This document shows, piece by piece, positions 2,632-31,450 of a stretch of DNA of 41,905 nt. Numbering within the stretch: the stretch's first letter is position 1; each line of letters begins with the position of its first letter. Position numbers and translations under genes: made by a program. Location of the stretch: positions 1 to 41,905 of the forward strand of contig JAHFPP010000004.1 of assembly GCA_023266675.1 (NCBI GenBank), read 5' to 3'. The notes beneath the pieces were generated by a model. The model was not told the origin of the DNA. It worked only from the letters and a program-made list of their open reading frames with translations, and did no database searches. Source of the stretch: Candidatus Woesearchaeota archaeon. Its GTDB lineage: Archaea > Nanobdellota > Nanobdellia > Woesearchaeales > BM511.

Positions 2632-3920
2632 TAAGAAAACTTCAGTTAATGACAAAAAAAATATCAAATTCGAAATTCACAAATAAATTCAGAAGAGAAG
2701 AGGACATTTTGCATAAATTTCAAAATAATCTTGCAAAAGATTTTCCTTTGTTAAAAAAAAGGAGGATATCATATCTGGACAGTTCTGCAACAACGCAAAA
2801 ACCGAAAATCGTCATAGACAAATTAAAAAGAGTTTATGAAATGCATAATGCGAACTCTCATCGCGGACTGTATGATATATCTGAAGAATCAACAAAAATG
2901 CTTCATGATGCCCGAAAGGTTTTTGCATATTTCATTAATGCATCAACTGAGGAAATAATTTTTACAAGAAACAGCACAGAAGCGTTGAATGGAATTGCAA
3001 ACAGTCTTGAAAGGACATTAAATTTTAAGAATAAAAATATTGTATCAACAGTGATTGAGCATCACAGTAATTTTGTTCCGTGGCAGCAGCTTAGCAAAAG
3101 AACTGGCGCCAAGTTTAGAATTGTTGATTTTGACATTTAAAAAAGCGAGTTTTCAATGATAAGCAAATATGCTGATAAGAATACATTGATATTTTCAATT
3201 ACTGGTATGAGCAATGTTACAGGATTCATTCCGGACTTAAGAAAAATAATAGATGAACTTCGTTCAATAAATAAGGATATGATAATCGTAGTTGATGCGA
3301 CGCAGCTTATTGCTCACAGAAAAATTGACGTTAAAGAGATGGATGCCGATTTTGTTGCCTTTTCAGCACACAAATTGTATGGTCCGACAGGCGTTGGTGT
3401 TCTTTACGGAAAAAAGAGCATGCTTGAAAAAATGGAGCCTTTCAGTTATGGTGGCGGAATGATAAACAAAGTTGAGTTGTATGATTCGAACTGGGCAGAA
3501 CTTCCTGATAAATTTGAAGCGGGAACAATAGACACCCCTGGAATTGTTGCATCGGCTGAAGCAATAAAGTATGTTGATGAAAAGTTTGAGTTTACAGTTA
3601 AGTATGAAGATATGCTGAAAGAATACGCTTTGAAAAAACTCAGAGAAATTAAAGAATTAAAAGTTATAGGGCATAATGAAGGGGCAAATTTTGGTCCTGT
3701 AATAAGCTTTATTGTCGACGGTGTCCATCCTCATGATTTGGCAGCGATATGCAATGAGAAAAAAGTGTGCATAAGGGCAGGGCATCACTGCTGTCAGCCA
3801 TTAATGGGAAAACTTTGTGTCGTTGCAACATCAAGAATGAGTATAGGAATGTACAATACAAGGAATGATATTGATAATCTTACTGATGCAATAAACCATG
3901 CCATAAAGGTCATAAGGTGA
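2628..3920 (+). pseudogene. sufS: Cysteine desulfurase SufS interrupted by one in-frame TAA at 3138-3140 (nonsense mutation or sequencing error)
   Basis: ORFs 2628-3140 (YLDSSATTQKP, EHHSNFVPWQ) and 3156-3920 (SAHKLYGPTG, RAGHHC) are in the same frame, separated by GAC ATT TAA AAA AGC GAG TTT TCA ATG. Confidence 0.88.
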
Positions 3921-5112: not shown

Positions 5113-6837
5113 ATGGTAAAATGGAATCTAGAGGACATATACCGGTTTAAAGATACTGAGAAGCTTATCAGCGAATTAAACAAAGAAGTTTCTGAGTTTA
5201 AAAAGTACAGGTCAAGATTAAATGACTCCCTTTCTAATAAAGTGTTTATGAAAATTGTTAAAAAGAAAGAAAGCATAATGGTTAAAGCTCATAAATTGTC
5301 AAGCTATGCTGGGCTTTCACTTAGCGAAAATACGTCTGACGGCAAGCGTATTGCCCATGAATCAAAGATATCACAGATATGCACTGAAGTTGGAAATGAG
5401 ATAATGTTTTTTAGCCTCTGGTTTAAGAGTATCAGCGATAGGAAGGCAGATTATTACATCAAGAATTCTGGAAAATACAGATATTTCTTGGAAGTTTCAC
5501 GAAAGTATAAACCTTACACATTGAATGAGAAAGAAGAAAAAATAATTAATTATAAAGACCTTAGCGGCGCTGATTCCTTAATTGGTATTTATGAGATAAT
5601 GACTAACGGGTTTACGTTTAAATGGAAAGGGAAAACAATAACACGCGAAGAGCTTTTTACAAATGTTCACAGTAAATATAGACGTGACAGAAAAGAAGCT
5701 TATGACTTGATTCTTAACCGTTACGCAGAAAATGAGACTGTATTAAGCGAGATTTACAAAGGAATAGTAACAGACTGGAATAATGAAAACGTTAAGATAA
5801 GAGGTTTTAAGACTCCAATATCGGTTAGAAATTTTGGAAACGAGCTTCCTGACGAATCTGTTGATGCGCTTTTAAAAGTTGTAAGGAAAAACTCAGGACT
5901 TTTCATGGAATATTTTGAATTAAAATCAAAAATCCTGAATGTAAAAATGGACAGATATGATATTTATATAAATTACAATGATGAAAAACCAGATTATCCT
6001 TTTGAGAAATGCAAAAAAATTGTGCTTGAAGGATATAAAGAGTTTGATAATGAGATGTATTTGAATGCAAAGAAGATTTTTGATTTAAACCATGTTCATT
6101 CTGATATAATTAAAAACAAAAGAGGAGGGGCTTTTTGTGCATCTGTTACACAGGGTGTTGCCCCTTATGTTTTTTTAAATCATGTAGGACGGCTTGAAGA
6201 TTTGTTCACAATGATGCATGAATTTGGACACGGAGTACATAATCTGCTTGCTAGCAAAAACACCGAGTTTACATGTGCAGCGCCTCTTCCTCTTGCTGAG
6301 ACCGCGTCAACATTTGGCGAGCTTCTTTTGTCCAAAAAACTTATTAGGAATGTTAGTGATGAGGAGAAGAAAGCCATACTGATAAAGCAGCTTGACGGTT
6401 TTTATGCAACGATTATAAGACAGGCGTATTTTGTGATGTTTGAGATTGAGGCGCATAAAGCGTTTTCAAAAGGCGCAACGCTTGACGAAGTCAATTTGAT
6501 TTATCTTAATAATCTTAAAGAGCAATTTGGAAAATCGATTAAAATACCTGATATATTCAAGCATGAATGGAAATACATACCGCACATTTATTTTTCGCCG
6601 TTCTATTGTTATTCATATTCTTTTGGAAACCTGCTTGTTTTGTCTTTATATAAAAAATATCTTGAAGATGGAGAAAGCTTTGTTCCAAAATACTTAAAGA
6701 TTCTTTCTTACGGAGGCTCAAAGGCGCCGGCTGACATATTAAAGGAAGTCGGTTTTGACATCACAAAAGAATCATTCTGGGAAGGCGGGTTTGATGTGAT
6801 ACGTGAAGAGATTGAAGAGCTTAAGAAACTCGTCTAA
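5113..6837 (+). CDS. pepF: M3B oligoendopeptidase F
   Basis: WNLEDIY N-terminus, KRGGAFC, HEFGH zinc motif, AETASTF, HIYFSPFYCYSY. Confidence 0.93.
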   Translation: MVKWNLEDIYRFKDTEKLISELNKEVSEFKKYRSRLNDSLSNKVFMKIVKKKESIMVKAHKLSSYAGLSLSENTSDGKRIAHESKISQICTEVGNEIMFFSLWFKSISDRKADYYIKNSGKYRYFLEVSRKYKPYTLNEKEEKIINYKDLSGADSLIGIYEIMTNGFTFKWKGKTITREELFTNVHSKYRRDRKEAYDLILNRYAENETVLSEIYKGIVTDWNNENVKIRGFKTPISVRNFGNELPDESVDALLKVVRKNSGLFMEYFELKSKILNVKMDRYDIYINYNDEKPDYPFEKCKKIVLEGYKEFDNEMYLNAKKIFDLNHVHSDIIKNKRGGAFCASVTQGVAPYVFLNHVGRLEDLFTMMHEFGHGVHNLLASKNTEFTCAAPLPLAETASTFGELLLSKKLIRNVSDEEKKAILIKQLDGFYATIIRQAYFVMFEIEAHKAFSKGATLDEVNLIYLNNLKEQFGKSIKIPDIFKHEWKYIPHIYFSPFYCYSYSFGNLLVLSLYKKYLEDGESFVPKYLKILSYGGSKAPADILKEVGFDITKESFWEGGFDVIREEIEELKKLV

Positions 6838-6879
6838 TTAAACGATATAGATATAAATTAAGTATTAATACTTGAGTCT

Positions 6880-7656
6880 ATGATGCCGGTTATTTTTGTT
6901 GGACATGGAAGCCCTATGAATGCTATTGAAGAGAATGAGTTTTCTAGAAAGTGGAGAGAACTTGGGAAAGTTTTACCTAAGCCAAAAGCAATTGTCTGCG
7001 TTTCAGCGCACTGGGAAACAGAAGGAAAATTTGTTACAGCGATGGACGCTCCAAAGACTATTCATGATTTTGGAGGATTTCCAAAAGAGCTTTATGAAGC
7101 AAGGTATCCTGCAAAAGGAAATTTGAAGCTTGCAAAAGAGATTGAGAAAAAAGGAATATCGCTTGACAATGATTGGGGTCTTGACCATGGATGCTGGTCT
7201 GTTTTAATTCAGATGTATCCAAAAGCTGACATACCTGTCGTTCAGGTAAGCCTTGATTATAATCTTAATTCAATAGAACACTATAAACTTGCCAAGAAAT
7301 TATTATTTTTGCGCGAAAAAGATGTTTTAATAATTTGCAGCGGAAACATGGTCCATAACCTTTCGCTTGTTGAATTCAGGACTGACTTTAATGAAAGCTT
7401 TGGGTTTGAATGGGCAAAGCATGCAAATGAATTATTCAAGAAACTAATAATTGAAGGACGCCACGAAGAGCTTGTAGAGTATGATAAACTTGGAAGTGAA
7501 GTCTCGCTTGCAATTAACTCAGCCGAGCATTATCTTCCTATGCTTTACGCGCTTTCATTAAAACATGAAGGCGATAAAATAACGTTTTTCAACGACAAAC
7601 TCATTGCAGGTTCAATCTCAATGACATCGTTTATTCTCAGTGAGAGGAAGTATTGA
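6880..7656 (+). CDS. ygiD: 4,5-DOPA extradiol dioxygenase (YgiD/LigB family)
   Basis: FVGHGSPMNA, SAHW, HDFGGFP, GLDHG, SGNMVHNL, EHYLP. Confidence 0.92.
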   Translation: MMPVIFVGHGSPMNAIEENEFSRKWRELGKVLPKPKAIVCVSAHWETEGKFVTAMDAPKTIHDFGGFPKELYEARYPAKGNLKLAKEIEKKGISLDNDWGLDHGCWSVLIQMYPKADIPVVQVSLDYNLNSIEHYKLAKKLLFLREKDVLIICSGNMVHNLSLVEFRTDFNESFGFEWAKHANELFKKLIIEGRHEELVEYDKLGSEVSLAINSAEHYLPMLYALSLKHEGDKITFFNDKLIAGSISMTSFILSERKY

Positions 7657-7694
7657 AAAATTATTATTAGAAAAGATTTAAAAAAAATAAGAGA

Positions 7695-7937
7695 TTAACA
7701 GCATTTATGTCCTTCTTCACCTCTTTTGGTTCCGTCCATAAAAAGGAAGTATGCCTTGACCTGATCCTCTTTTGATTTTGGAAACAAGTCTTTGATTAGC
7801 TTAATTAAGTCGTCATGCTTCATGTCTGTTTTTTTGAAGTTTTCCCAGATTTTGTCGTATTCTTTCTCTGTAACTTTAAATTCGTCTGCTATTGTTTTTT
7901 CTTTTTTTGGTTTTGTCTTTTTAGTTTCTTTTTTCAT
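7695..7937 (-). CDS. Small hypothetical protein (Lys-rich N-terminus, C-terminal HKCC)
   Basis: ORF with a GAGG SD before ATG 7937 (MKKETKK...). Confidence 0.65.
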   Translation of the reverse strand: MKKETKKTKPKKEKTIADEFKVTEKEYDKIWENFKKTDMKHDDLIKLIKDLFPKSKEDQVKAYFLFMDGTKRGEEGHKCC

Positions 7938-8020
7938 TGTTTTTCCTCGTTTGTAAGTTATTATCAAATAATCCTTAATAAATAAGTTTGTTTTAAGAGT
8001 AGAAGATATTGATGAAAAAA

Positions 8021-8263
8021 TTATTTATTTAGCTTATTTTTAAGCGATATCTCTTCCTTCGCTTCAGCTTTCATCAGGAAATACAACGTTGGCATAAGAA
8101 CTAATAGTCCAAGAATAATTATTATCATCCATAATGGTTGAAGATACAGATAATATGAAGCTAGTACTAGACCAATTCCAACACCAATCATCAGTTTGCT
8201 AGTCAATAGCAAGATAAATTGAAGTACAGATATTTCTTTTCTGATTATCTTCTTGTTTAGCAT
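8021..8263 (-). CDS. Small membrane protein (two hydrophobic helices)
   Basis: 80 aa ORF with two long hydrophobic segments. Confidence 0.7.
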   Translation of the reverse strand: MLNKKIIRKEISVLQFILLLTSKLMIGVGIGLVLASYYLYLQPLWMIIIILGLLVLMPTLYFLMKAEAKEEISLKNKLNK

Positions 8264-8337
8264 GTTATTCTCTAATGTCTGATATTATTTAAATATATCT
8301 TTTTTAAGACTATTTAGAAATTAAAAATAAAAAAATA

Positions 8338-8410
8338 CGCCTTCAACCAGGCTCGAACTGGTGACCTTGCGGTTAACAGCCGCACGCTCTACCTACTGAG
8401 CTATGAAGGC
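8338..8410 (-). tRNA. tRNA-Asn (GTT)
   Basis: Reverse complement GCCTTCATAGCTCAGTAGGTAGAGCGTGCGGCTGTTAACCGCAAGGTCACCAGTTCGAGCCTGGTTGAAGGCG: 73 nt cloverleaf, GTT anticodon, no encoded CCA. Confidence 0.97.
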
Positions 8411-8529
8411 CTCGTAGATTTAATTGTTAAAAATTCGCAGCATTTTATAAACATTTCGAATAATGAAACATAAAATTGAGTATATATTTATAAACTTTAG
8501 ACTTCACCGTTAGTATTAGGTGATATTTT

Positions 8530-8949
8530 TTGAGTATTTTAAAGAAAGTTATTGACAGTCTTTTTAGCAGCAGCAAAAATTATGAATCAAAGGAGACTAA
8601 AGTAAAACCAAATGTTTCAAGAGAGTTATCGCTTGATAAAGTTAGAAAAGAAGCTGGCGCGCATCTTGAAAAAGAGCTGTTAAAAACAAAAACTGAAGAA
8701 AACAGAAACCCTTTGGAGCGTATTGTAAGCAAAGAGGAAGTTAACTGGAAAGCCCATGAAGAAGGTGAAGACCATCAGCGAAGAGAAGTTGAAAAGATTG
8801 TCGGCGCGTCTTATGGACAGCATGATACCTTTAATCATCACGAAGATGAAGCGTCTCACCAGGCTTATCTTACACATAATAATAGAGGAGGCGAAAGGCA
8901 TTACAATTCGTCTTCAAATCAAAGAGATGTTTATAATAATCAACACTAA
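8530..8949 (+). CDS. Hypothetical hydrophilic protein with His/Asn-rich C-terminus
   Basis: TTG start preceded by an AGGTGA SD and an upstream TTTATAAA box; 139 aa. Confidence 0.6.
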   Translation: MSILKKVIDSLFSSSKNYESKETKVKPNVSRELSLDKVRKEAGAHLEKELLKTKTEENRNPLERIVSKEEVNWKAHEEGEDHQRREVEKIVGASYGQHDTFNHHEDEASHQAYLTHNNRGGERHYNSSSNQRDVYNNQH

Positions 8950-12484: not shown

Positions 12485-13771
12485 ATGGGAAAGAATAAAG
12501 CTGTTATAGGAACGCAATGGGGCGATGAAGGCAAAGGCAAGATAATTGATTGGTTATCAGAAGATGCTGACGGAATTGTAAGATTTCAAGGCGCCAACAA
12601 TGCAGGACATAGCGCAATAATCACGTTAGAGGGTATAACACATTCTTTAAAATATAATTTAATACCTTCAGGTTATGCTCATCATGGAAAATGGAATCTG
12701 ATGGCAGCTGGCGAGATGATTGATCTTGCCCATTTAGTAAAAGAACAGAAACTCGTGTTTAATGAACTTGAAGGCAGAGTTGGAGAACTGCTGCTTGATC
12801 TTAGAGCATGTGTAACTATACCATATCATATTGGACTTGATAAAGCAAATAATGCTCACATAGGAACAACAAACCGCGGAGTTGGCCCTGCACATGAAGA
12901 CAGAGCAGGAAGAAGGGCAATTAGAATTCTTGATTTTGAAAATCCTGAAACATTAAAACAAAAGATTATTGAAAATACATTGCATGCTAACCATCTTCTA
13001 TTAATTGGGAAAAATCATGTTGAACAATATGACCCAAACAAAGTATTTGATGAAGTGATGGAGGCATATCAAAAAGTTAAAGGATTTACTAAAATAATTG
13101 ATGGAAAAAGATTCTTGGCCGAGAGAGTTAATGTAGACAATCAAACAGTATTGTTTGAACTTTCTCAAGGTTACATGCTTGATAATATATTAGGAACTTT
13201 TCCGATGGTTACATCTTCAAGAACCATCGCTAGTGAAGTCACTGCAGGAACAGGTGTTTATATTGAACTGGATAATAGAATAGGTGTTGTTAAAGCGTAT
13301 ACAACAAGGGTTGGCAATGGACACTTCACAACTGAATTAACTGACGATATAGGCAGAAGAATTCAAGAGGTTGGAAAAGAAGTTGGAACAACCACAGGTA
13401 GAACAAGAAGATGTGGATGGGTAGATTTAGTTCCAATATATGACGGCGACATAACAAACAAGTACACTGAATTAAATTTGACTAAGCTTGATGTTCTTAC
13501 AGGCATTCCGACAATTAAAGTTTGTACTGCATATGAACTTGACGGAAGCAAGATAGAGTTTATACCTCCAAATCTTTCTGATTATGAAAGGGTAAAACCT
13601 GTTTACATAGAACTTCCAGGATGGACACAGGACATAACAGGAGTCAGGGATTTTGATAAACTTCCACAAAATGCACAAAGATATGTTGATAAAATAGAAA
13701 ATTTAGTTAATATACCAATAAGATACATAGGCACTGGCCCTGAAAGAAACGATATGATAATAAGAAATTGA
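12485..13771 (+). CDS. purA: Adenylosuccinate synthetase
   Basis: QWGDEGKGK, NNAGH, IGTTNRGVGP, KAYTTRVG, GTTTGRTRRCGW, TKLDVL; GGTGA SD. Confidence 0.97.
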   Translation: MGKNKAVIGTQWGDEGKGKIIDWLSEDADGIVRFQGANNAGHSAIITLEGITHSLKYNLIPSGYAHHGKWNLMAAGEMIDLAHLVKEQKLVFNELEGRVGELLLDLRACVTIPYHIGLDKANNAHIGTTNRGVGPAHEDRAGRRAIRILDFENPETLKQKIIENTLHANHLLLIGKNHVEQYDPNKVFDEVMEAYQKVKGFTKIIDGKRFLAERVNVDNQTVLFELSQGYMLDNILGTFPMVTSSRTIASEVTAGTGVYIELDNRIGVVKAYTTRVGNGHFTTELTDDIGRRIQEVGKEVGTTTGRTRRCGWVDLVPIYDGDITNKYTELNLTKLDVLTGIPTIKVCTAYELDGSKIEFIPPNLSDYERVKPVYIELPGWTQDITGVRDFDKLPQNAQRYVDKIENLVNIPIRYIGTGPERNDMIIRN

Positions 13772-13817
13772 ATATTTGTTTATTTTTATTTTTTTAAAAT
13801 TTGTTTAAAAATTATTT

Positions 13818-15899
13818 TTATTTCTTCTTGTCAAAATAATTTGGGTCAACTAAATCTGTTTTCTTACGCATCTTTCTTAGTGCTTGCACTTCAATTTGCC
13901 TTATCCTTTCTCTGGTTATACCTCTTGGATCGCCAATTTCCTGAAGTGTTTCTTCGTCATCTCTATTTACTCCAAATCTCCTTTCTATTATTTCCCTTTC
14001 ATTAGGTGTTAGTACTGAAAGAAGCTGTCCAACAAGTTTTTTATCAGATAATTCCGTTAGATGTCTCTCAAACCTATCCTCTTCAGGTGTAAAAAGCTCT
14101 TCAAAAGTTGTATCTCCGTCACCAACAAATTGGTCAAATGATGTTTCAGCTTTAAAATTCATGTTTCTCAATTTTTGTATCTGCCTTTCTTTCATACCAG
14201 TCATCTTTGCAACTGTTGCTACTGATGGTACTTCACCATTTTTATCAATATAATCTGCATAAAATTTGCTTATCCTGCTATGCTGTTCGTAGACATGCCA
14301 AGGAAGCCTAACGCTTGCATCACCATCTGACATTGCACGCGTAATCTTTTGTCTTATCCACCACGTCGCATAAGTGCTAAACTTAAACCCTTTTGTGCCG
14401 TCAAACTTGTATGCTGCATTCATTAGTCCTATCGAGCCTTCCTGCACTCTGTCAAGAAAATCCAACCGTTTTGCATATGAATACTGTCTTGCAATTGATG
14501 CCACAAGAAGCAAATTTGCTTCAACCAAATCGTTTAATGCAACCGTGTCGCCGTTTTTTATTCGTATGGACAGTTCCTTCTCCTCTTTTGCAGTCAATAG
14601 AGGAGTTGCTGATATCTCGCTGAAATATGTTCTTTCAAGGTTTACTGATGTTGTTGAGAACTTTGCCAACTTTCCTTTGGAATTGTAGACAGGTACTCCT
14701 CTTATCATTTGATCTTCATGCACTATCTCCTCGACTTCAAGTGAGTCTTCAAGATTAAGTTCTGCTATCTTCCCTCTTAATTTCTGTTTTATTCTTCGTA
14801 TCTCTTCATTTCGTGTTAATTTCTTTGCGCTTCGTAAAGACAGGTTTCCTTCCTCTCTTCGCATCATGTAATCAATTAAGTCGTATCCTGTTATGTGATA
14901 AACACCAAAATGTGTATTAGTAGACTCAGGTTCTTCCTCATCAGCTTCAAACAGTTGACGCGGATGTGTTAATGGTCTTGTTTTTCTGTATTCACCATTA
15001 TTCACGTTTGGTTTTGCGCGCAGTTCTTTTCTGTCTATTGCCTCTGAAATCTCCCTGTATGAAATTTTGCAGAGTGACATCATTTCAAGTATGGTGTAGT
15101 CTGAGTTTGGTTTTATTTTTTTAAGCCCGAGATGTGCTGATTCTTTTTGTATCGCGTCAACATTTTTCCTTAATGACTCTACAATTTTGTGGTCTGGTTT
15201 GTATGGATATTGCTGTGTTAATTTGCCTTTGTCTTCAGCAGTTAATGATTCTTGCCCTGAGTTCTTTAGCTCCCAGAGGTCTTTTGCAAGCGAATTTAGC
15301 TCCATGTTGTCAAGTTTTATGAAACCCATTTTATATTTGATTGCCCTCACAACAGGAGGAGGTATCTGAATTGAGCTTCCAATTGTTGCGTCAGGTTCGT
15401 ATCTGTGGTCGCTTAGATATTGCATCTGATGAAGTGGAACTGAAATTTTAACGTCTTTTAGTATTTCTTCAATTGCTTTATATGAATGGCTTGTCTCAAC
15501 CTCATTAGATTGTGAGAACAAGTCTTTGAAATGTACAAGGCTTTCAAGAGGCACCATTGATAGTTTTGTGTTTCCGACAGAAACTTTGGTGGTGAGGGAT
15601 GGGTTTTCCTGAACTTTTTGAAAAACTTTGTCGGCTCCAATTATTGATGCCAGAAGAAACAGGTCTAGATGTGATTCATCATTTCTTAATGTTAAACCAT
15701 ATTCTTTTTTAAATGCATAGACTATTGACGCCCCAAGAACTCGACCGAGTGAATCGTATAACACTCCGTTGTTTGGATGTATTAATTTTGAATCCATAAG
15801 CCCTATGCTTTCAAGTTCATTATGTGAATATCTCTCGTGGAGAGCTATATTCTCAAGCGCTACAGATACTCGTTCCCGTCTTGCATCATATTCGTTCAT
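13818..15899 (-). CDS. RpoD-like sigma-70 factor (regions 1.2-4) with a ~420 aa N-terminal extension
   Basis: TYFSEISATPLLTAKEE (1.2); EANLLLVASIARQY...QEGSIGL...FSTYATWWIRQ (2); region 3 helix; TLQEIG...TRERIRQIEVQALRKMR (4.2). Confidence 0.93.
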   Translation of the reverse strand: MNEYDARRERVSVALENIALHERYSHNELESIGLMDSKLIHPNNGVLYDSLGRVLGASIVYAFKKEYGLTLRNDESHLDLFLLASIIGADKVFQKVQENPSLTTKVSVGNTKLSMVPLESLVHFKDLFSQSNEVETSHSYKAIEEILKDVKISVPLHQMQYLSDHRYEPDATIGSSIQIPPPVVRAIKYKMGFIKLDNMELNSLAKDLWELKNSGQESLTAEDKGKLTQQYPYKPDHKIVESLRKNVDAIQKESAHLGLKKIKPNSDYTILEMMSLCKISYREISEAIDRKELRAKPNVNNGEYRKTRPLTHPRQLFEADEEEPESTNTHFGVYHITGYDLIDYMMRREEGNLSLRSAKKLTRNEEIRRIKQKLRGKIAELNLEDSLEVEEIVHEDQMIRGVPVYNSKGKLAKFSTTSVNLERTYFSEISATPLLTAKEEKELSIRIKNGDTVALNDLVEANLLLVASIARQYSYAKRLDFLDRVQEGSIGLMNAAYKFDGTKGFKFSTYATWWIRQKITRAMSDGDASVRLPWHVYEQHSRISKFYADYIDKNGEVPSVATVAKMTGMKERQIQKLRNMNFKAETSFDQFVGDGDTTFEELFTPEEDRFERHLTELSDKKLVGQLLSVLTPNEREIIERRFGVNRDDEETLQEIGDPRGITRERIRQIEVQALRKMRKKTDLVDPNYFDKKK

Positions 15900-15900
15900 G

Positions 15901-17565
15901 TTATTGCCTGTTTTTTCCTAATTCTCTCATTAATAATTCTGCATCATCTTTATCTATATAACTTATTCCCTTTCTTGTTTCAGGCGCAATGCCCGCGCTC
16001 ATAAGCGCTTCAAAAAGCGCCTCTGGATTTATATTTTTGCTTGTTGCAAATTCCTGAAGCATTATCTGATTACTGTCTGCTGCAATGCTTCTATCTTTTT
16101 CATGTGAATCATTTTTTACTGATGCGTATTTGTTCAGTAGGCTCATTATTGATAATCCTGTTAATGCTTCTCTTTTTTTACCATCAACTTTTGTGGTCTT
16201 AAGTAATCCTAATTTTACTAATTCTCGCGCCACATAGGTGTGTGATGGTTTTTGAAGGACTTCATCAAGAAAAAATCTTTGAGTGTATACACCTTTCATG
16301 TCTATTTGAGGCAGTGTGTCCAATGATTCAAAGATAAGCAATCGTCTCAATGTTGACTCAAGTGAATTGTTGTTTGGCTGTTTTACTCCCTTACTCTTTG
16401 ATTGTGAAACTATATTAGTTCTTCCAGAATAATCTGATTCTGGTTTAACAACTCTTTGTTTTTTTACATGCTGCGTTGCTTGTTTAGAACTTACTTTTGC
16501 AGATGAATGTTCAAGTAACGCTTTTAAATTGTCATCAAGATGATATAATTTCTCCTTGCCATAATCTAATTTAGTTAATGGCTCTACAGCATTATTTATT
16601 CTTTTGTATGCTGTCGGATTGCTTATTCTATACATTGTTGCAAGCTGACTTATATTGTAATGATTTTCAGGCCGCATCACTGTCTTTTTCTCAGCTGTTT
16701 TTGGTTTTGAGCTTTCAAATATTTTCAAATTATCTTCAGTGATAAAAAATGAAGTTTCTTTCCCTTGTTTTCTTCTGTCTGAAAACATTCCTTTGTGTGT
16801 TGAAATTTTTACAGATATGTTTCCCTTTGTCTTTCCTGTAAATTCAGACAATTCTCGTGTTGTATAATATCTTCCAACTAAAAGCGTGTTGCCAACAGAA
16901 TCAGGGGTTATTTCAGATACACCATCTTCTTGCAGAATTCCGTCCTTCAATCGTATGTATTGTCTGTTTTCCTCAGTTATGTGATACAGTGTTCTTCCGT
17001 GTTCTTTTATTCTGGAAAATTCAGCTTTATGGTCTGAGATTATATTGTAAAGCGTGACTTTTTTTATTCCTGTGAGTTCTTCAAGCTGGTTAATTGAGTA
17101 GTGGTTTTTAGGCGCAATAAATTCAGTTTTTTCACCAGATTTTTCTTCAGAGTATTCTATAAGTGCAATGCTTCTATTGTCAGAAAGCATTAATGAGACT
17201 GGAGTTTCTGCATTTGTTCCTTCTGAAAATGGAAGATAACTTAAAAATAGTTTCTTCTGCTTTTTTATTTCTTTATAATCATCTTTTGAGACAGTGAAGC
17301 TGTGTTCAGCAGAGGCTGTTCCGTCATTTGGGTTTAGAAGTTTATAGGTCAGTGAGTTGCCGGAATATTCAAGATTGATATGCCGTTTTTCGCTGCTTAA
17401 TGTTCCGTTAGAATGGTATAAATAATCTGTTTCAAAAACTCCGTTTGATATCCTTTTTGCCTCTATAGTTACCTCACTGCCAAGCCACTCCTGAAAATTT
17501 CCCCTGTACGCTCTTTTTACAATAAGTTCAAGAGCTTCGTTTCCTTGATGTATTAGTCCAGACAA
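15901..17565 (-). CDS. Protein with tandem MerR/excisionase-like HTH repeats
   Basis: Three similar units: HYSINQLEELTGIKKVTLY, YYTTRELSEFTGKTKGNIS, HYNISQLATMYRISNPTAY. Further HTH-like segments at the C-terminus. Its stop lies 1 nt from the sigma start. Confidence 0.75.
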   Translation of the reverse strand: MSGLIHQGNEALELIVKRAYRGNFQEWLGSEVTIEAKRISNGVFETDYLYHSNGTLSSEKRHINLEYSGNSLTYKLLNPNDGTASAEHSFTVSKDDYKEIKKQKKLFLSYLPFSEGTNAETPVSLMLSDNRSIALIEYSEEKSGEKTEFIAPKNHYSINQLEELTGIKKVTLYNIISDHKAEFSRIKEHGRTLYHITEENRQYIRLKDGILQEDGVSEITPDSVGNTLLVGRYYTTRELSEFTGKTKGNISVKISTHKGMFSDRRKQGKETSFFITEDNLKIFESSKPKTAEKKTVMRPENHYNISQLATMYRISNPTAYKRINNAVEPLTKLDYGKEKLYHLDDNLKALLEHSSAKVSSKQATQHVKKQRVVKPESDYSGRTNIVSQSKSKGVKQPNNNSLESTLRRLLIFESLDTLPQIDMKGVYTQRFFLDEVLQKPSHTYVARELVKLGLLKTTKVDGKKREALTGLSIMSLLNKYASVKNDSHEKDRSIAADSNQIMLQEFATSKNINPEALFEALMSAGIAPETRKGISYIDKDDAELLMRELGKNRQ

Positions 17566-17611
17566 TTAAACCACAACTATTGTTTAGTAGTTAAATAATC
17601 TTTTGAACTTA

Positions 17612-17619
17612 TATATAAA
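17612..17619 (-). promoter_or_regulatory. Archaeal TATA box candidate (TTTATATA) for the multi-HTH/sigma operon
   Basis: Minus-strand TTTATATA about 50 nt upstream of the TTG start at 17565. Confidence 0.5.
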
Positions 17620-17721
17620 GACGATGGTTTTAATAAGTTAGGAAAAAAGGACTATTTTTTGAAATTTATAGGAGATTAGGTAAATATAGAAATATATAAA
17701 TTAAAATAAAAAACACTTCAT

Positions 17722-18936
17722 TCAAAACTTCAATTTCTTCAATCGTTCAATTGCTTCAAGCGTGTTTTCGCGTGTGTTAAATCCTGAGAATCGAAGGAAT
17801 CCTTCGCCAGCCGGTCCAAATCCTGCGCCGGGAGTTGTTACAACAAACGTTTTGTTTAGTATTTCTTCAAATACATCCCATGATTTTTTTCCTGGAAAAT
17901 GAGCCCATATGTAAGGCGCGTTTGTGCCGCCGTAAGTTTTGATGTTGAAAGATTCAAGCGCATTTTTAATTAAGCGTGTGTTTTCTAAATAGTGATCAAT
18001 TGTTTCTTTCATCTCAACTACTCCCTTATTGTCAAGCGCATAAAGTCCGCCGTATTGTGCAACATTTGACGCGCCGTTGAAAAGTGTTGTCATGACACGG
18101 TTCCAGTCTTTGTTTACTGACGAACCGTCATCATATGAAAGCAGCTGTGGAACAACTGTCCAACCGAGTCTAACGCCAGTGAATCCTGCTGGTTTTGAAA
18201 AGCTTGAGATTTCTATTGCAACTTCCTTTGCGCCTTCAACTTCATAGATTGATTTTGGAAGTTTTTCGTCGCTGATAAAAAAACTGTATGCTGAATCAAA
18301 AAGTATTATTGATTTGTTTTTCTTTGCAAAGTCAACAAGCTTTTTTAGTTCTTCGCGTGTTGCAACTGCACCTGTCGGGTTGTTTGGCGAGCAAAAGTAT
18401 ATCAAATCTGTTCTTGGAAGATTTTCAAGGTCAGGGAAAAAATTGTTTTCTGGCGTGCACTTCATGTATACAATCTTGTCAAACTGCCCTTTTTTCTCGT
18501 TGTATTTTCCTGTTGCGCCAATTATAACTGAGCCGTCAACGTAAACAGGATATGATGGGTCCTGTATTGCGACGCTTGCATCTTTTCCAAATAATACCTG
18601 AAGTCGTGAGATGTCGCATTTTGCGCCGTCAGAAACAAAAACTTCATCAGGACTTACAGCGCCGCCATAAATGTTTTCAGAAATCTTTCGTCGTAACGAA
18701 GTCATTCCCTGCTCGTCACCATATCCTGAGTATCCTTCTTTTGTTGAAAGCGCGTTTGACTCTTTTAGCAGCCCTTCAGTTATATGTAAGGACAAAGGAA
18801 GCGTTGTGTCGCCGACTCCAAGGCTTATAATTTTCGCATTTGGATTTTTTTCTGCGACTAACTTTTTTCGTCTGTTTATTTCCGGGAATAAGTATCCTGC
18901 TGTAAGTTTTGTAAAATTTTCATTTCTTTTTACCAT
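17722..18936 (-). CDS. dapL: LL-diaminopimelate aminotransferase
   Basis: GYLFPEI, ISLGVGDTT, GYGDEQG, SDGAKCD, CSPNNPTG, SFSKPAGFTGVRLGW. Confidence 0.96.
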   Translation of the reverse strand: MVKRNENFTKLTAGYLFPEINRRKKLVAEKNPNAKIISLGVGDTTLPLSLHITEGLLKESNALSTKEGYSGYGDEQGMTSLRRKISENIYGGAVSPDEVFVSDGAKCDISRLQVLFGKDASVAIQDPSYPVYVDGSVIIGATGKYNEKKGQFDKIVYMKCTPENNFFPDLENLPRTDLIYFCSPNNPTGAVATREELKKLVDFAKKNKSIILFDSAYSFFISDEKLPKSIYEVEGAKEVAIEISSFSKPAGFTGVRLGWTVVPQLLSYDDGSSVNKDWNRVMTTLFNGASNVAQYGGLYALDNKGVVEMKETIDHYLENTRLIKNALESFNIKTYGGTNAPYIWAHFPGKKSWDVFEEILNKTFVVTTPGAGFGPAGEGFLRFSGFNTRENTLEAIERLKKLKF

Positions 18937-24957: not shown

Positions 24958-25005
24958 GAATACCCCTCTATCTCTTTGATATTGTTAAGATAAATTTCAG
25001 ATTCT

Positions 25006-25053
25006 TTAATAACTTTATGTTATTAATATAACAAATTACTCATAATTTGTTAT
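25006..25053. promoter_or_regulatory. Palindromic operator-like sites upstream of lysC
   Basis: TTAATAAC-TTTAT-GTTATTAA (25006-25026) and ATAACAAATTA-CTCA-TAATTTGTTAT (25028-25053). Confidence 0.55.
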
Positions 25054-25173
25054 TAATCCAATTATTAAGAATTTCAAATTAGTAATAATTTTATCAAAAG
25101 CCACACGACTTAATTTTAAAGACAAGAATATTGCTGTTACAATGATTAAATCTCTTGTTGAATCGTCAGTCAT
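25036..25173 (-). pseudogene. Truncated paralog (N-terminal 41 aa) of the membrane-anchored protein at 30365-31279
   Basis: MTDDSTRDLIIVTAIFLSLKLSRVAFDKIITNLKFLIIGLI aligns without gaps to MVDNSTRDLIIVITIALSLSINKAVFDEIREVLKFLVIGLI, then TNYE-stop. Confidence 0.85.
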
Positions 25174-25437
25174 TACTCATGCACCTTTAAATCCATAACA
25201 ATTACGAGCCTCACAAACAATAAAAGCCGAACTCGGAGATTGTATAGCAAATCGTAAACATAACTATCCTAAACGATTATGAAAACAATATAGAACTGAG
25301 CCTACAAAATTGCATAAATTTACACAAAAGTGTCAAAATTAGTGCAAAAATGTAACCCACAGAACAAAAAGTGTACCGAAGGTAAGGAATAGCAATGTTT
25401 TTTATCCTTTAACTTCCCTTTTGCCCAGATTCATTAT

Positions 25438-25734
25438 CTAAAAGAATAGGTGATACCTATAAATTAAAAATAAAGGGATATATATTATTACCAAACCAAT
25501 TCCAATTAGTTCCAATAATCTTTGTTTTGCATATTTTGGTCTTAATTCATTAGGAATTTCTGGAAGATTTGGATTAAAGTAATATCTAAACCAGAATGTG
25601 AATTTTCTTTTTCTGCCAAATTCAGGGCATACTTTTAAAGTATAATTAAATAAATGCAAACTTGAAAAACGAACATAAAAAACATACAACCCTAAACAGA
25701 TTTCATATATCATTAATAATTTATTCATATCCAT
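25438..25734 (-). CDS. Putative immunity protein (2 TM) for the orphan RHS tip
   Basis: 98 aa with two hydrophobic helices, directly downstream of the RHS C-terminal cassette. Confidence 0.6.
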   Translation of the reverse strand: MDMNKLLMIYEICLGLYVFYVRFSSLHLFNYTLKVCPEFGRKRKFTFWFRYYFNPNLPEIPNELRPKYAKQRLLELIGIGLVIIYIPLFLIYRYHLFF

Positions 25735-25774
25735 TTTAGTCTTAATACCTTTTCTATTTAAATATTTTTTTAAT

Positions 25775-26458
25775 CTAGCAAAAGCGTGCCGAATGAGTAG
25801 AGCAATAATCCTTATAATTTAAGGGAACATTATTCTGGTAATTATTGTTTGTATTCCCGTTTGAATTGCTTTGACCACTAGTACCACTGGTTGAACCTGA
25901 TTTGTCATTATTATTTACTTTAGAACTTTCATCTATTTGACTGATATAATTATGAAATACATTATATGTAAGTTCAGTTAAGATAGTATAAAAAATGGAT
26001 GGGTCAGGACGCATTGATTCAGTTAACAAACTCGTACTCATTGAATCTACTTGGTTAAGACTTTCCGTCCTTTTTGAATCTTTATTTCCAGCAATTGTAT
26101 TGAGAGTTGAAGAAACAGTACTTACCTTACCTAAGTCTTCATCAATTTTAGTATCTTGCGAACTTGTTGTAAAGGTCGAACTTATTAATTTGGTAAGACC
26201 ATAACCTGCTATAACAATACCACCAACTAATATTACTGCACCACCCACAGCAAGTACTGCACTTCCCCCAGCTGCAACCGCAATTCCGTAACCAAGATAA
26301 GCAGCATACCCGCCTTTTGCTAAATCTAACAAACCAAATAATGCACCCTTTAAAGCATGTCCACTCGGGTCAATGTATCTGTATGGATTCGACCTCTCAA
26401 AATTATAACGATTTAACATCTGCGGGTCATACACATTTTGAATCAAAGTATCAGGTTG
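25775..26458 (-). pseudogene. Orphan RHS core end plus C-terminal toxin-like cassette
   Basis: Begins QPDTLIQNVYDPQMLNRYNFERSNPYRYIDPSGH just after TAG TAA; followed by a Gly/Ala-rich hydrophobic domain. Confidence 0.82.
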
Positions 26459-26510
26459 TTACTAATTCTGAATGTGTATGAAGTCCTTTTGTATGATAAG
26501 AACCATTAGG

Positions 26511-26528
26511 TAACCTATCAATAGGTTA
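26511..26528. promoter_or_regulatory. Perfect palindrome TAACCTAT-CA-ATAGGTTA, candidate operator
   Basis: Lies between a minus-strand TATA (26541-26550) and an ATG at 26506, near a divergent wHTH gene. Confidence 0.5.
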
Positions 26529-26729
26529 AATTGTGAGTTTTATATTTAAACTCATCTTTTTTAATAAAAAAAGAGCCTACCTCACCCAAAATCGTTAAAG
26601 CTAGTCAGCCATCTTTGGTTTTGAGCTATTACTATATTTTGTCAGGTATGACGACACATATTTAAATGTTACTAATATGTTACTTATATGTTAATATTAT
26701 TTATATCTAGCCGTTACGCTCAGGTTATT

Positions 26730-26987
26730 ATGGAAAAAAACTTCATAGTTGTTATGAAAAGTAAGATAAATTATGAAATATTGAGACAATTAGACGAAAA
26801 ACCATTAATACCAATTATGTTATCGAAGGCATTAAAAAGACCAAGACCGAGTATAAGCAGAGCATTAAATGAATTGGTAGAACATAATCTTGTCAAGTGT
26901 GAGAATCCTAAAGACAAAAAATTCAGATTTTACAGCATAACTTCTATAGGGAAAGATGTTTTGAAAGAGGCAGGAAAATATAATTAA
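26730..26987 (+). CDS. ArsR/MarR-like winged-helix transcriptional regulator
   Basis: LSKALKRPRPSISRALNELVEHNLV...FYSITSIG; ATG at 26730. Confidence 0.85.
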   Translation: MEKNFIVVMKSKINYEILRQLDEKPLIPIMLSKALKRPRPSISRALNELVEHNLVKCENPKDKKFRFYSITSIGKDVLKEAGKYN

Positions 26988-27006
26988 GAATTATTTTTTT
27001 AACAAT

Positions 27007-27894
27007 TTAACATTGTAGCATTACTGCATTATCTGTTCTTGAGAATATTCCAGACATCACAAGTGAATTTAATTTTTCATTAAATTTTATGTCAGATATT
27101 TTGTTGAATAAGTTTTCATAAATTTTGTATAAATTATTAATATCTATAGAAACCCTATTTATCTTCATATTATCTGACAAATATAACATACAAGCAATTA
27201 TATCAACATAAGGTTTTAAGTGTCTTATCCCTAATTCATGGATTATATAATCATAGTTATTGCTTAAAACTTTAGATATTGCTTCTTCTACTGCTAAATT
27301 ATGTGCTTTTTTATTTTCTTCTAATAATTTTTTAAATTTGTTGGATGCTTTTAATTCTCCTTTACTATTAAACTCTGCCATATCTGAATCGACAAGCAAT
27401 TGAATATACTTTTCATATTTCTTATCTGATTCTATCATTCTTGTAAGTTTATCTTTTTTTATAACATCGTCATAAACTAATTCATTAAGAAGTACATAAA
27501 ATTTATTTAAAAATGCGGAAGTAGTGTGTATTGATTTTAATATTTGAATCATGATTTTTTTATTCGATATTACCTTGTTAAACAAATTATTTCTTAGTTC
27601 AATAAACTCATCATTAATCGCATTATTAATTTCTTGCAAAGGAAGTTTTAAATCTTCCCCTTCTCTTACATCTGCTCCATATATATTCTCGAAATAGATA
27701 TTTCTTATATATACCTTTTTTGAGTTTTCATCAATAACATTAAAAATTTTGTTGTAATTAAAATAAACTTTGTAGTTATTATTTCCTAACTCTTTTACAT
27801 CACTTACATTTAGACGTACACCATATTTTTTTAAGGTTTGAAAATTAAGTGATTGTTTAAAATTCTCTATCCTGTTATCAATTAATAAGCTCAT
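27007..27894 (-). CDS. Hypothetical protein (possible wHTH-like segments)
   Basis: 295 aa, very AT-rich; ATGA overlap with the upstream peptidase gene. Confidence 0.75.
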   Translation of the reverse strand: MSLLIDNRIENFKQSLNFQTLKKYGVRLNVSDVKELGNNNYKVYFNYNKIFNVIDENSKKVYIRNIYFENIYGADVREGEDLKLPLQEINNAINDEFIELRNNLFNKVISNKKIMIQILKSIHTTSAFLNKFYVLLNELVYDDVIKKDKLTRMIESDKKYEKYIQLLVDSDMAEFNSKGELKASNKFKKLLEENKKAHNLAVEEAISKVLSNNYDYIIHELGIRHLKPYVDIIACMLYLSDNMKINRVSIDINNLYKIYENLFNKISDIKFNEKLNSLVMSGIFSRTDNAVMLQC

Positions 27895-28550
27895 TTTAAT
27901 TTTTCCTGTTTTTCTTGTTCTTTTCGTTTATTGTTATATTTCTTGGCTTCTGTCTTTAAATATTTTACTTCTATAAAAGCCTTTATCTGTTTTATGCATT
28001 CATAAAAGTCTTTTTTATCAAGTTTAAAATAATGGTTTAATAAGTCTTTCTCATTTTTTGATATCCATGGCATCTGGTAACTCGGGTCAATAAAAAGTAT
28101 CTCGTCACCTTTTGATTTGTATCCAACAAAAAGCAATACATGTTTGACATCAGACCTATGTATGTCACCAAAGTCTAATTGATATTCATTTTTATAATGT
28201 TTTCTTGTAAAATCAAGCACTTTTAACCAAAAAAATACTGGTATTGGAATGTTATTGCTTAAGTTTTTATGGATGTCTTGAATACTCTCAAATTTCCTTA
28301 CAGAGAAGGAATAAGGCACTTCCTTTTGTTTCAGATAAGTATTGAATTTATTGAAAATGTATCTTTCATCTCTTATGCCTTCATGGTCGTAATCAAAAAT
28401 CACTTTTAGGTCATTAATATCTACTTTATTTATGTAACCAAGATGTTCAAGAATAGCTAGTATGGAGTTTAAACCACATGCCTGATATTCTTTGATATAG
28501 ATATCAGAATTTTTCAAATTTATTATAAATGAATCTTTTAAGGTTCCCAT
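27891..28550 (-). CDS. Papain-fold (C39-like) cysteine peptidase
   Basis: ACG...AIL helix, HVLLFVGY, FIDP: Cys-His-Asp triad pattern; no signal peptide. Confidence 0.75.
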   Translation of the reverse strand: MGTLKDSFIINLKNSDIYIKEYQACGLNSILAILEHLGYINKVDINDLKVIFDYDHEGIRDERYIFNKFNTYLKQKEVPYSFSVRKFESIQDIHKNLSNNIPIPVFFWLKVLDFTRKHYKNEYQLDFGDIHRSDVKHVLLFVGYKSKGDEILFIDPSYQMPWISKNEKDLLNHYFKLDKKDFYECIKQIKAFIEVKYLKTEAKKYNNKRKEQEKQEKLK

Positions 28551-28656
28551 ATCAAATACCTGTTAACACGCATATTTAAATGAAATCTGTAAAGAAACTT
28601 ATAAAGCTTGCTCTTTTTTAGAGAGTAATTGCTTTATCGTTAGGTTGATTCTTTAA

Positions 28657-29799
28657 TTAATTCACATGGCATTTCATCATGTCATAATAGCATTTTACAG
28701 CGTATTTTCTTGAAGTTGCTGTAACACATTGTTTTGGATGTTTTCCTTTCTCTTTTAGTCTGTTGAAAAACTTTGCTAAGTGTCCCTCTTTGTTATGACT
28801 TAGTTGCACGAGTGACAATAAATAAAAAGTGTGTCGCAATATCTTATCGCCTCTCTTTGTTATATAACAATTTTTGCTTAAGTTTTTACCTGATTGTTTC
28901 TCACTCACGTTTAATCCGCAGTAGCTTACAAATTTTTTATGATTTGGGAATCGCCTTATATCTCCAACCTCACCAATTATACAAGCCAAACTTACATCAT
29001 CATATCCAAACTCATTTAATAATCTGCTATAGGGACTTGACATGACGGCGACTTTGATTTTTGATTTGATATCCTCCATTGTCGCTTCATAGAAATTTAA
29101 TATCTTGATTGTTTGAACAAAGCAATCAGTAGGATATCCCTTGATACCTACACTTTTTTGTGCTAATTCCCTTATTTTAGGAATAAACTTTTTTTGAAGA
29201 AATGCCAGTTTTTTGTATTTAGAAGTTAAGGCTTCTTGCATTTCCTCATCTGTTAGTTTTGCTATTATCTCAGGGCTTGGATATCTTGTTAATAACCCTG
29301 TGATTGCTTTAGTTTTTGACAAGTGAAAATGTGTTTCAAGTTCAGGAAATATTATGTTTATCTGTCCTTTAAACATGTGCTTGTATTTACTAAGCTGAGA
29401 GCTCGTCTTATAATATAATCTTGCCAAATCCCTCATCTCATCTTCTTTAATAGGATTTATCTTTTTTAAACCAAACGATAAGTATTTTGAGATTAGCCTT
29501 GCATCTATCTTATCATTCTTCATATGGGTAAAATGCAGTTTAGCAAAAGTATGCATTTGGGCATTATCTACATAAATAACATTGTATTTCGTTTTGAAAT
29601 AATCATATATTGCTTTGCTGTAATTCCCTGTTGTCTCCATAGCAATAGTTGTGTCATAAGTTATGTTATGTTCTAATTCATCAAAACCCTCTTTTGTGTG
29701 AGCTATTTCAAATTCCTTGAAGATAGTCCTATCATCATTAAGTATACAAACCTGTGATTTATTTTTTGATACGTCTATTCCGCAAAACATTTTCTTCAA
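28657..29799 (-). mobile_element. IS110-family transposase/recombinase
   Basis: DEDD RuvC motifs (GIDVSK, METTG, KNDKIDA) and C-terminal GEVGDIRRF...YCGL...QSG; TTG start with a GGGAGG SD. Confidence 0.93.
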
Positions 29800-29815
29800 C
29801 CTCCCTTATAAAAAA

Positions 29816-29911
29816 GTAAAAAATGCAACCAGTTACACAAGGCTGATGTCGGGCACACGAAAAAAAACGAAGTCCCACCAGACACGACGTGCTTAATGGT
29901 TGCAGTTTTAC
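29816..29911 (-). ncRNA. Candidate IS110-associated structured RNA (bridge/seek RNA-like)
   Basis: Non-coding segment directly upstream of the transposase, closed by a TGCAACCA/TGGTTGCA stem with an internal CTGGTG/CATCAG stem. Confidence 0.45.
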
Positions 29912-29913
29912 AA

Positions 29914-30321: not shown

Positions 30322-30364
30322 TTTCTATCCCTCCAAAATGTTTTTCTAAAAAAGTCAGTTAATG

Positions 30365-31279: not shown

Positions 31280-31450
31280 TTTAGCCCGTAAACATAGACA
31301 TCCTCCATTCATAAACGAAACTCGGAGAATGTATATCAGAACGAATACGGGTTTAGGGCTAGTTTAAAAAGAAGGTATTAATTTCGTAATGACGTTAGAA
31401 TTTGTCAATATCTCGACTAACTTATTCTTTTATCTCTTTTTTTAAAAAAT

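Follow-up and report, generated by a model that had tools for sequence, protein, structure and literature searches.

Why does an archaeon keep a bacterial-type sigma-70 gene, and what does the product do there? In textbooks, sigma factors on one side and TBP with TFB on the other mark the divide between transcription in bacteria and transcription in archaea and eukaryotes, so that intact and long-kept archaeal sigmas in cells without a bacterial polymerase are an unexplained exception to that divide. We examined one such gene, encoding a protein of 693 amino acids (aa), within 41,905 nucleotides (nt) of DNA from a Candidatus Woesearchaeota archaeon (assembly GCA_023266675.1, contig JAHFPP010000004.1), together with the 554-aa gene directly upstream, referred to below as the partner. 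The stretch, here called the window, is the whole of contig C9 of the genome under study (G000; 1.22 Mb in 83 contigs, 95.9% complete, 0.9% contaminated). The first-pass annotation of this locus had taken a sigma factor in an archaeon as unheard of, a premise that is outdated since sigma-70 in Woesearchaeota is already known. A review (PMC6126073) credits the first description of archaeal sigma factors to Rinke et al. 2013, and the main text of Castelle et al. 2021 (PMC8204110) describes sigma-70 genes (fam00359) as particularly prevalent in Woesearchaeota, with mis-binning ruled out, no anti-sigma factor and an unclear mechanism. Our literature searches for mechanistic follow-up on archaeal sigma-70 found none. 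At the locus described here we found a selectively maintained archaeal operon, in whose second product a DPANN-restricted domain is linked with a sigma module that is almost canonical.

The sigma module occupies the C-terminal part of the protein. It had been annotated as having complete sigma regions, which stood for regions 1.2, 2 and 4, all over the Pfam cut-offs (Table 1), whereas region 3 was sub-threshold, although the helices in that area (residues 534-579) of an AlphaFold2 model were confidently predicted, with predicted local distance difference test (pLDDT) values of 86-97. There was no Pfam match to region 1.1 even at E<=10. The sigma-70 superfamily model TIGR02937 of NCBIfam scored 88.3 bits, over its cut-off of 42.9, and the best PDB sequence matches were SigA chains (8x6f_E, E 5e-48, residues 422-679). 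The AlphaFold2 model, built from a 38-row alignment, had pLDDT >90 across most of residues 420-688, and its Foldseek neighbours were sigma-S and sigma-A in holoenzymes (E down to 2e-16, template modelling score (TM) by target about 0.6). With regions 2 and 4 and the sigma fold, the 693-aa protein belongs to the sigma-70 family. The earlier designation as RpoD-like was correct, and RpoD/RpoS-type NCBIfam models scored highest, with RpoH (117), SigB/F/G (91) and extracytoplasmic function (ECF) models much lower; a group 1 (primary, RpoD-type) assignment fails on the lack of region 1.1 and on the RpoD equivalog score, all NCBIfam equivalogs being below cut-off (RpoD_Cterm 202 vs 354, RpoS 207 vs 378.7, NF004208 201.9 vs 555). 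Judged by these profiles, the stretch from residue 416 to 680 is a sigma-70 domain of group-1/2 type that has been kept well, save that region 3 is divergent and region 1.1 absent.

The residues expected to do the work of a sigma factor were compared with those of E. coli RpoD by alignment. Kept were L402, D403, Q406 and E407 in region 2.2; F427, Y430, W433, W434, R436, Q437, T440 and R441 in regions 2.3/2.4; H455 and E458 in region 3.0; and R584, E585, R586, R588 and Q589 in region 4.2, positions which we take to serve core docking, -10 melting and reading, extended -10 recognition and -35 recognition. Changed were R385L, L404R, N409S and Y425F. The motifs FSTYATWWIRQ and TRERIRQIE, and the substituted forms NLLLV and DRVQEG, were all present in the translation as first annotated; among 24 aligned archaeal homologues, NLRLV, DLIQEG.IGL, FSTYATWWIRQ and TRERIRQIE were kept in 50-90% of rows. 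The module retains nearly all residues that serve bacterial sigma-70 in clamp-helix docking, in -10 reading and melting, and in -35 reading. Set beside bacterial RpoD/SigA and RpoS, the protein has the same fold, aligns in regions 1.2, 2, 3.0 and 4.2 over residues 415-680 at about 40% identity and keeps nearly all -10, extended -10, -35 and core-docking residues; it differs in falling below their equivalog cut-offs, in lacking region 1.1, in its weak region 3, in an extra and unrelated N-domain of 415 aa, and in a host without the bacterial core enzyme. Identity of the sigma domain to any other sigma was <=43%, and the nearest DNA homologue of the gene was about 31% identical in protein. In a tree built from 49 sigma domains (the window, 24 from archaea and a further 24, every fifth best match, taken as bacterial; rows <230 aa dropped), the window row was a long branch of 1.11 substitutions per column, compared with 0.05-0.4 for some relatives, and paired with a second long branch; support was lacking for 20 of the 41 inner branches, and origin and monophyly are not settled by this tree.

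The N-domain, residues 1-415, gave no relatives in Pfam, NCBIfam, a word-indexed set of 5.8 billion proteins or 60 relatives of the genome. Its apparent standing as an orphan was overturned by an exhaustive HMMER search of 1.84 billion representatives, in which 12 other proteins matched at E<=0.001. The best of these, P0122 (670 aa), was 37% identical over residues 12-369 (E 9e-58). In nine of the 12, with lengths of 487-670 aa, the matched part is followed C-terminally by sigma regions 2, 3 and 4; of the others, one is a repeat protein of 1112 aa, one a fragment of 97 aa and one a protein of GcrA-like repeats. Conserved blocks in the alignment (A3) were WY..EL..GLYD, VLGASV, DYID..LA.AL, L.Y.S.H...IP..V..A.YK.G, YPY.P, A..LGL..I.P..YTI.E and V.I.G..L..Y. 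We define a "long sigma" subfamily by a conserved N-domain of about 400 aa (WY..EL, VLGASV, YPY.P, LGL..I.P..YTI.E) followed by sigma regions 2-4, an architecture which the G000 protein has. Long sigmas were found in four DPANN genomes of two orders, G585 and G688 being of another order than G000, and all proteins seen so far with the N-domain come from DPANN genomes or are unnamed metagenome proteins. The source record of one member names a sigma-70 family protein from a Candidatus Nanoarchaeia archaeon; identical Pfam scores suggest that this member and the G688 protein are the same. The subfamily with its own conserved N-domain is a new point of this work, and the N-domain is, going by these alignments, not an orphan.

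The fold of the N-domain gave less to go on: its profile had 0 matches to PDB sequences at E<=10, and AlphaFold2 pLDDT was mostly <50, with 60-74 at residues ~200-290. Pattern-limited scans of genome contigs with the sigma protein, and of metagenome contigs with A5 and P0126, gave no match. As to the matched proteins P0124 and P0132, residues 89-143 of the N-domain match nine repeats in the 1112-aa protein, and residues 205-265 match the protein of GcrA-like repeats, which has five such helix-turn-helix (HTH) units. There are hints here, from the repeat matches, that the N-domain may itself be assembled from small DNA-binding-type modules. The HTH-unit profile of the partner scored 0.8 bits against it (E 0.085 for 3 targets), which is not significant and so gives no support for an HTH_17 unit within the sigma N-domain.

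The gene coupled to the long sigma was described at first as a multi-HTH protein, and this was upheld for three tandem units of about 55 aa, at residues ~148-205, 231-285 and 296-350, for which self-comparison with unit 1 gave 73 and 69, well over the 47 that marks the 99th percentile among shuffles; there was no support for further HTH units in the C-terminus. Pfam HTH_17 (PF12728) scored 25.8 bits on the partner against a cut-off of 27 (E 1.2e-5), and a profile made from the repeat unit found 3 domains in the partner and none in other open reading frames (ORFs) of G000. The ESM Atlas clusters nearest to the partner by features and by structure had HTH_17 in 90-100% of their members; multi-HTH_17 repeat proteins of 300-550 aa, mostly labelled Bacteroidota in the Atlas, resemble its three repeats, but with scores all <=0.78 and TM all <=0.25 these neighbours are leads only. 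An AlphaFold2 model made without an alignment had a mean pLDDT of 35 and was unusable, and the Atlas model had a pLDDT of 0.57 and a predicted TM of 0.24. No relatives of the partner were found in the 60 relatives, the word-indexed 5.8 billion proteins or its own genome. Matches of the partner in Pfam, NCBIfam, PADLOC and PHROG included no anti-sigma family. The partner is a lineage-specific and fast-evolving protein with three HTH_17-like units.

The sole relative of the partner, in G355, was reached through the sigma N-domain. There a long sigma gene, truncated at the end of its contig, begins 3 nt downstream of the gene for a 376-aa homologue of the G000 partner (27% identity over 325 aa with BLASTP, E 8e-15; phmmer E 1.1e-18). 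In G688 the long sigma overlaps by 4 nt a same-strand upstream gene of 819 aa, and in G585 by 11 nt one of 614 aa; neither product has a Pfam match, and the two are homologous to each other (E 3e-17). A large same-strand gene thus lies directly upstream (gap <=3 nt or overlap) in 4 of 4 readable long-sigma contexts, and this conserved upstream coupling is the second new point here. ORFs upstream of the archaeal sigmas that are not of the long type were unrelated orphans, and once a GHKL ATPase. The pair had been called a horizontally acquired two-gene module. The module is real, as the pair recurs in G355 and a coupled gene recurs in the other contexts; its import as a whole from bacteria is not supported, since only the sigma domain has bacterial relatives, those of the N-domain and the partner having been found in DPANN and unnamed metagenome proteins alone. 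Nor is the transfer of the sigma gene supported as recent, given its host-typical codon usage and its low identity to other sigmas.

The locus and its signals are given in Table 1. The 1-nt spacing reported at first was confirmed, base 15900 alone separating the partner stop from the sigma ATG.

Table 1. Features of the sigma and partner locus, in positions of the window
Feature	Position	Strand	Remarks
purA	12485..13771	+	downstream neighbour of sigma gene
sigma gene	13818..15899	-	ORF, 693 aa, ATG start
sigma-70 domain	13818..14654	-	residues 416-693 plus stop
region 4	13863-14024	-	Sigma70_r4 PF04545, residues 626-679, 58.4 bits (cut-off 24.1), E 4.9e-16
region 3, divergent	14088-14279	-	Sigma70_r3 PF04539, residues 541-604, 15.5 bits (cut-off 25.3), E 0.019
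region 2	14328-14528	-	Sigma70_r2 PF04542, residues 458-524, 57.1 bits (cut-off 24), E 1.6e-15; also seen in a scan of the genome
region 1.2	14547-14633	-	Sigma70_r1_2, residues 423-451, 39.2 bits, E 6.9e-10
sigma N-terminal domain	14655..15899	-	residues 1-415; conserved in "long sigma" subfamily
partner gene	15901..17565	-	ORF, 554 aa, TTG start
three HTH_17-like (excisionase/MerR-like) repeats	16504..17130	-	partner residues ~146-354
intergenic spacer	17566..17721	-	AT-rich, 156 nt, dapL stop to partner gene
TATA-like element TTATTTAA	17591-17598	-	-33 from partner TTG start
TATA-like element TTTATATA	17612-17619	-	-54 from partner TTG start
dapL, lysA, asd, dapA, dapB, lysC	upstream side of partner	-	lysine-biosynthesis row

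An archaeal-type TATA box had been noted upstream, in agreement with the two TATA-like elements found in the spacer, TTTATATA at -54 and TTATTTAA at -33; the position of the latter matches the genome-wide TTTAWA peak (-35..-26). A GTGG Shine-Dalgarno-like word lies about 8 nt 5' of the partner TTG, and an oligo-T run lies within a few bases 3' of the sigma stop. There was no TATA-like box at -35..-26 before the sigma ATG, which fits co-transcription of partner and sigma. Both genes look resident: codon bias B against the genome was 0.200 for sigma (14th percentile among genes of similar length) and 0.204 for the partner (11th percentile), and G+C at third codon positions was 0.31 for sigma and 0.25 for the partner, where the genome mean is 0.296 +/- 0.059. 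The 693-codon sigma frame is unbroken in a genome of 35% GC, and the protein is also recorded from a second contig, 35,649 bp long, with one change in its 693 residues. Among sequencing runs, one DNA data set, which may be the source sample, contained 0.99 of the sequence words, and no RNA data set was listed. No integrase or repeats were found at the locus.

We examined if the host is truly an archaeon, and the first assignment was borne out by several markers. A TBP gene is present (contig C8). Bacterial rpoC and rpoB models gave matches below cut-off only, on a split archaeal B''/B'-A' operon that runs from contig C18 on to C71, where the NADFDGD motif lies; the genome search for bacterial-type rpoB or rpoC that had been proposed at the outset gave none over cut-off. 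Of 582 genes with >=80 nt of upstream gap, 118 had a TTTAWA that begins at -30..-26 from the start codon and 51 had one at -35..-31, against 12-34 in each of the other 5-nt bins, with an A-rich stretch just 5' of the peak; peak and A-rich stretch together are the signature of TATA and B recognition element (BRE) promoters with leaderless mRNAs. The N-terminal 459 aa of Rpo1 (Rpo1N) were 59-84% identical in 40 of 40 relatives searched, and the named genomes with the closest copies were Candidatus Woesearchaeota, Nanoarchaeota and Nanoarchaeia, some being generically labelled "uncultured Methanosarcinales". No 16S rRNA was found in G000 with either of two models. The host is therefore an archaeon of the Woesearchaeota/Nanoarchaeia kind without bacterial-type RNA polymerase genes. 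Contig C9 fits this genome: the tetranucleotide distance of C9 to the bin mean is among the smallest in G000, and lysC-dapB-dapA-lysA-dapL is syntenic with the same-family genome G001 (65-71% aa identity), where dapL is followed by guaA and purM without a sigma gene. The top-scoring model for the window PurA is bacterial-type. Mis-binning or a recent import of the sigma locus is unlikely.

TFB was not found in G000 either with the TFIIB model or with the TFBs of five relatives (best E 0.39), whereas it is present in 5 of 5 relatives examined. The counterparts in G000 of the genes next to TFB in G001 and G002 lie at contig ends, C49:19714-21017 and C12:11041-11175, and for that reason the missing TFB is probably an assembly gap. 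G000 has a second sigma-family gene, ECF-like and of 239 aa, at C10:5779-6498 (-) (locus L176), near a ParB-like gene on a low-GC contig of 11 kb (Sigma70_r2 36.9 bits, r4_2 29.9 bits); it was missed by a phmmer search with the RpoD-like domain as query. Elsewhere in the window, the suf cluster has its class-V aminotransferase, a SufS-like cysteine desulfurase, broken into two neighbouring ORFs at 2628-3140 and 3156-3920 (+), which cover Pfam profile positions 2-120 and 134-371 and suggest a frameshift, a stop codon in the frame or an error of sequencing. A low-GC stretch (0.23-0.33) at 25000-40327 holds an IS110-family transposase (28657-29799), a C39-like peptidase, several family-less ORFs and, at 33014-38551, an 1845-aa protein with FG-GAP, TcdB_toxin_midN and RHS repeats; it looks like a polymorphic-toxin-type island in an archaeon. 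In G001, two family-less ORFs (84 and 247 aa) lie between lysA and dapL (L025, G001:C77, 9624-10635), and lineage-specific genes seem to insert frequently into this row of genes.

Sigma homologues are spread through the order. With the whole 693-aa protein as query, 25 of 61 genomes (G000 included) carried one; these match only residues ~390-690, at <=41% identity, and no orthologue was found in 3 same-family genomes. Copy length varies between 265 and 881 aa, tandem arrays occur (of four genes in G042 and of two in G035), and region 1.1 was kept in 3 of the 14 homologues scanned with Pfam. Among their neighbours are housekeeping genes of archaeal kind: exosome RNase PH, deoxyhypusine synthase, diphthamide synthase, RIO kinase, the archaeal CCA-adding enzyme and a ribosomal protein S15 with an S13_N domain. 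The tandem row of G042 (L030, G042:C3; 5361-6224, 6260-7153, 7236-8351 and 8442-10496, all -) adjoins the exosome RNase PH and deoxyhypusine synthase genes, and two of its four sigmas keep region 1.1 and have very short tree branches (0.05, 0.17). At L049 (G059:C12, -) a 647-aa GHKL (HATPase_c_3) ATPase with a weak MzaB-like match, 6661-8604, ends 4 nt before a 430-aa sigma, 5364-6656. As described in the main text of Castelle et al. for DPANN sigma-70 genes, a bacterial-type sigma-70 lies in G000 beside archaeal basal machinery and without a recognised anti-sigma factor; the gene, the machinery and the exclusion of mis-binning were all found in G000, TFB itself excepted. The published passage on fam00359 describes no N-domain family and no coupled partner, and fam00359 may already include the long form.

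We favour, with a confidence that stays somewhat short of even, the reading that the pair is a resident, sequence-specific transcription regulator acting inside the archaeon; its DNA binding, its regulatory role and any contact with archaeal RNA polymerase are what we infer. A long-resident two-gene operon of a Woesearchaeota-type DPANN archaeon would be transcribed from an archaeal TATA-type promoter. Its first gene would supply a fast-evolving DNA-binding protein with three HTH_17-like repeats, and the second, presumably translationally coupled at 1 nt downstream, encodes a protein that joins the DPANN-type N-domain of about 400 aa to a group-1/2-like sigma-70 module. DNA would be bound by sigma regions 4 and 2/3 together with the HTH units of the partner, and the N-domain and the partner may control or target the DNA binding of the sigma module, on top of the TBP/TFB machinery.

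A number of observations weigh against the regulator reading. Full-length bacterial sigma-70 without core enzyme binds promoters poorly. The retained specificity residues imply that the protein should prefer a canonical -35/-10 promoter, and such sites are barely enriched: matches to the consensus (TTGACA-N16-18-TATAAT-like) with <=1 mismatch numbered 85 against 68.9 +/- 4.4 expected, and the genome-wide counts at 0, 1 and 2 mismatches were 1, 85 and 1217 compared with 2.8, 68.9 and 1049.6 in shuffles, the sole perfect site falling inside a coding region of C34. Across 13500-18000 of the window there was no excess of sigma-70-type promoter matches either (14 vs 14.1 +/- 3.2 expected). The FSTYATWWIRQ block is degraded in 6 of 10 aligned long-sigma members (for example FPAYASWLIKK and FSRYAAIWVRK), and TRERIRQIE of region 4.2 is lost in 2 of the 10, so that canonical sigma chemistry is not required across the subfamily. 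The subfamily is also rare, its N-domain having turned up in two genomes (G000, G355) out of 401 taken from the order and in three (G000, G585, G688) out of 401 taken from the class. Finally, the G000/G355 partners and the G688/G585 upstream proteins had no detectable homology (hhalign probability 0.4%).

The strongest competitor of the regulator reading, though we hold it unlikely, is that the sigma is a true initiation factor for archaeal RNA polymerase, replacing or complementing TFB/TFE. Region 2 would dock on the Rpo1 clamp coiled coil, which is homologous to the bacterial beta-prime clamp helices, and initiation or open-complex formation would take place at -35/-10-like promoters. In its favour, the docking residues of region 2.2 and the melting residues are kept here and commonly in the archaeal homologues; some relatives retain region 1.1; and no bacterial polymerase is at hand in G000 or in 5 sigma-bearing relatives, of which 0 of 5 passed the bacterial rpoC cut-off and which, one-contig and three-contig genomes among them, have archaeal-type Rpo1 only. 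TFE-beta is also stated to be absent from DPANN (PMC7289017). The coiled-coil segment of Rpo1 was invariant in 30 of 30 aligned genomes, which counts in favour; on the other side, it was equally so with and without a sigma, and hence no sign of co-adaptation. A complex prediction of sigma residues 415-540 with Rpo1N residues 1-459 (from alignments) scored 0.00 against a mark of 0.32, made without controls and uninformative either way. Against such a factor are the TATA/BRE-type promoters genome-wide, the presence of TBP, the TFB found in the sigma-bearing genomes G019 and G031, and the scarcity of enrichment for sigma-70-type promoters.

That the protein is an effector, delivered to a bacterial partner or host to reprogram the RNA polymerase of that cell, would account for canonical core-docking and promoter-reading residues in a genome that has no bacterial core enzyme, and yet it is distinctly unlikely. 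Neither a signal for secretion nor a delivery system could be tied to the gene, the neighbours being purA and lysine-biosynthesis genes; the DPANN hosts known so far are other archaea, according to PMC8204110; and the coupled HTH partner and the 400-aa N-domain better suit a resident regulator. Still less probable is a relic, an old bacterial import without present function that drifts toward loss. The long tree branch, the substitutions R385L, L404R and N409S at usually conserved sites, and the lack of an orthologue in the same-family genomes would fit decay, whereas the frame and the functional motifs are intact, codon usage is host-typical, the second record is nearly identical, and both the N-domain (across two orders) and the gene coupling are conserved.

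A part in a defence system or mobile element, such as an MzaA relative or a virus-borne sigma, is a shade less credible again. MzaA of the MZA anti-phage system (NF041931 / PDLC02203) was the top-scoring named family, best in NCBIfam (228.6 bits) and in PADLOC (158.7 bits), and it, too, has a long N-terminus ahead of its sigma module; the phage sigma family PHROG 351 gave 222 bits; and the sigma of L049 follows the ATPase with the weak MzaB match. The MzaA score is far under its cut-off of 800, however, and covers profile positions 461-704 of 726, that is the sigma part alone; no MzaB-E neighbours and no MZA partner were found among the 15 window proteins scanned, no integrase or repeats stand between the purA and dapL flanks, and N-domain or partner relatives were absent from viral contigs in a search limited to patterns A5 and A6. 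An artefact, either a mis-binned bacterial contig or a chimeric join at purA/sigma/dapL, is hardly credible, for the bacterial-type PurA score is opposed by the dapL-side synteny with G001, the genome-typical composition and codon usage, the TATA-type upstream region, the same subfamily and gene pair in other DPANN genomes (one source-labelled Nanoarchaeia), the sigma homologues that adjoin archaeal markers in one-contig and three-contig genomes of the order, and the same protein on a second contig in another record.

The locus narrows the puzzle of archaeal sigmas without solving it, to a subfamily with its own domain, a coupled partner and canonical docking and promoter-reading residues, and it offers a defined two-protein system for tests against archaeal RNA polymerase, bacterial RNA polymerase and genomic DNA. 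There is a slim chance that the long sigmas are working initiation cofactors of archaeal RNA polymerase, with region 2 on the Rpo1 clamp coiled coil. At this place, the TFE/Spt5 site, region 2 might help to melt a subset of promoters with -35/-10-like elements, and the N-domain and multi-HTH partner could be a built-in switch, anti-sigma-like or activating. If true, a bacterial sigma module would here be seen for the first time at work on a polymerase of archaeal or eukaryotic type.

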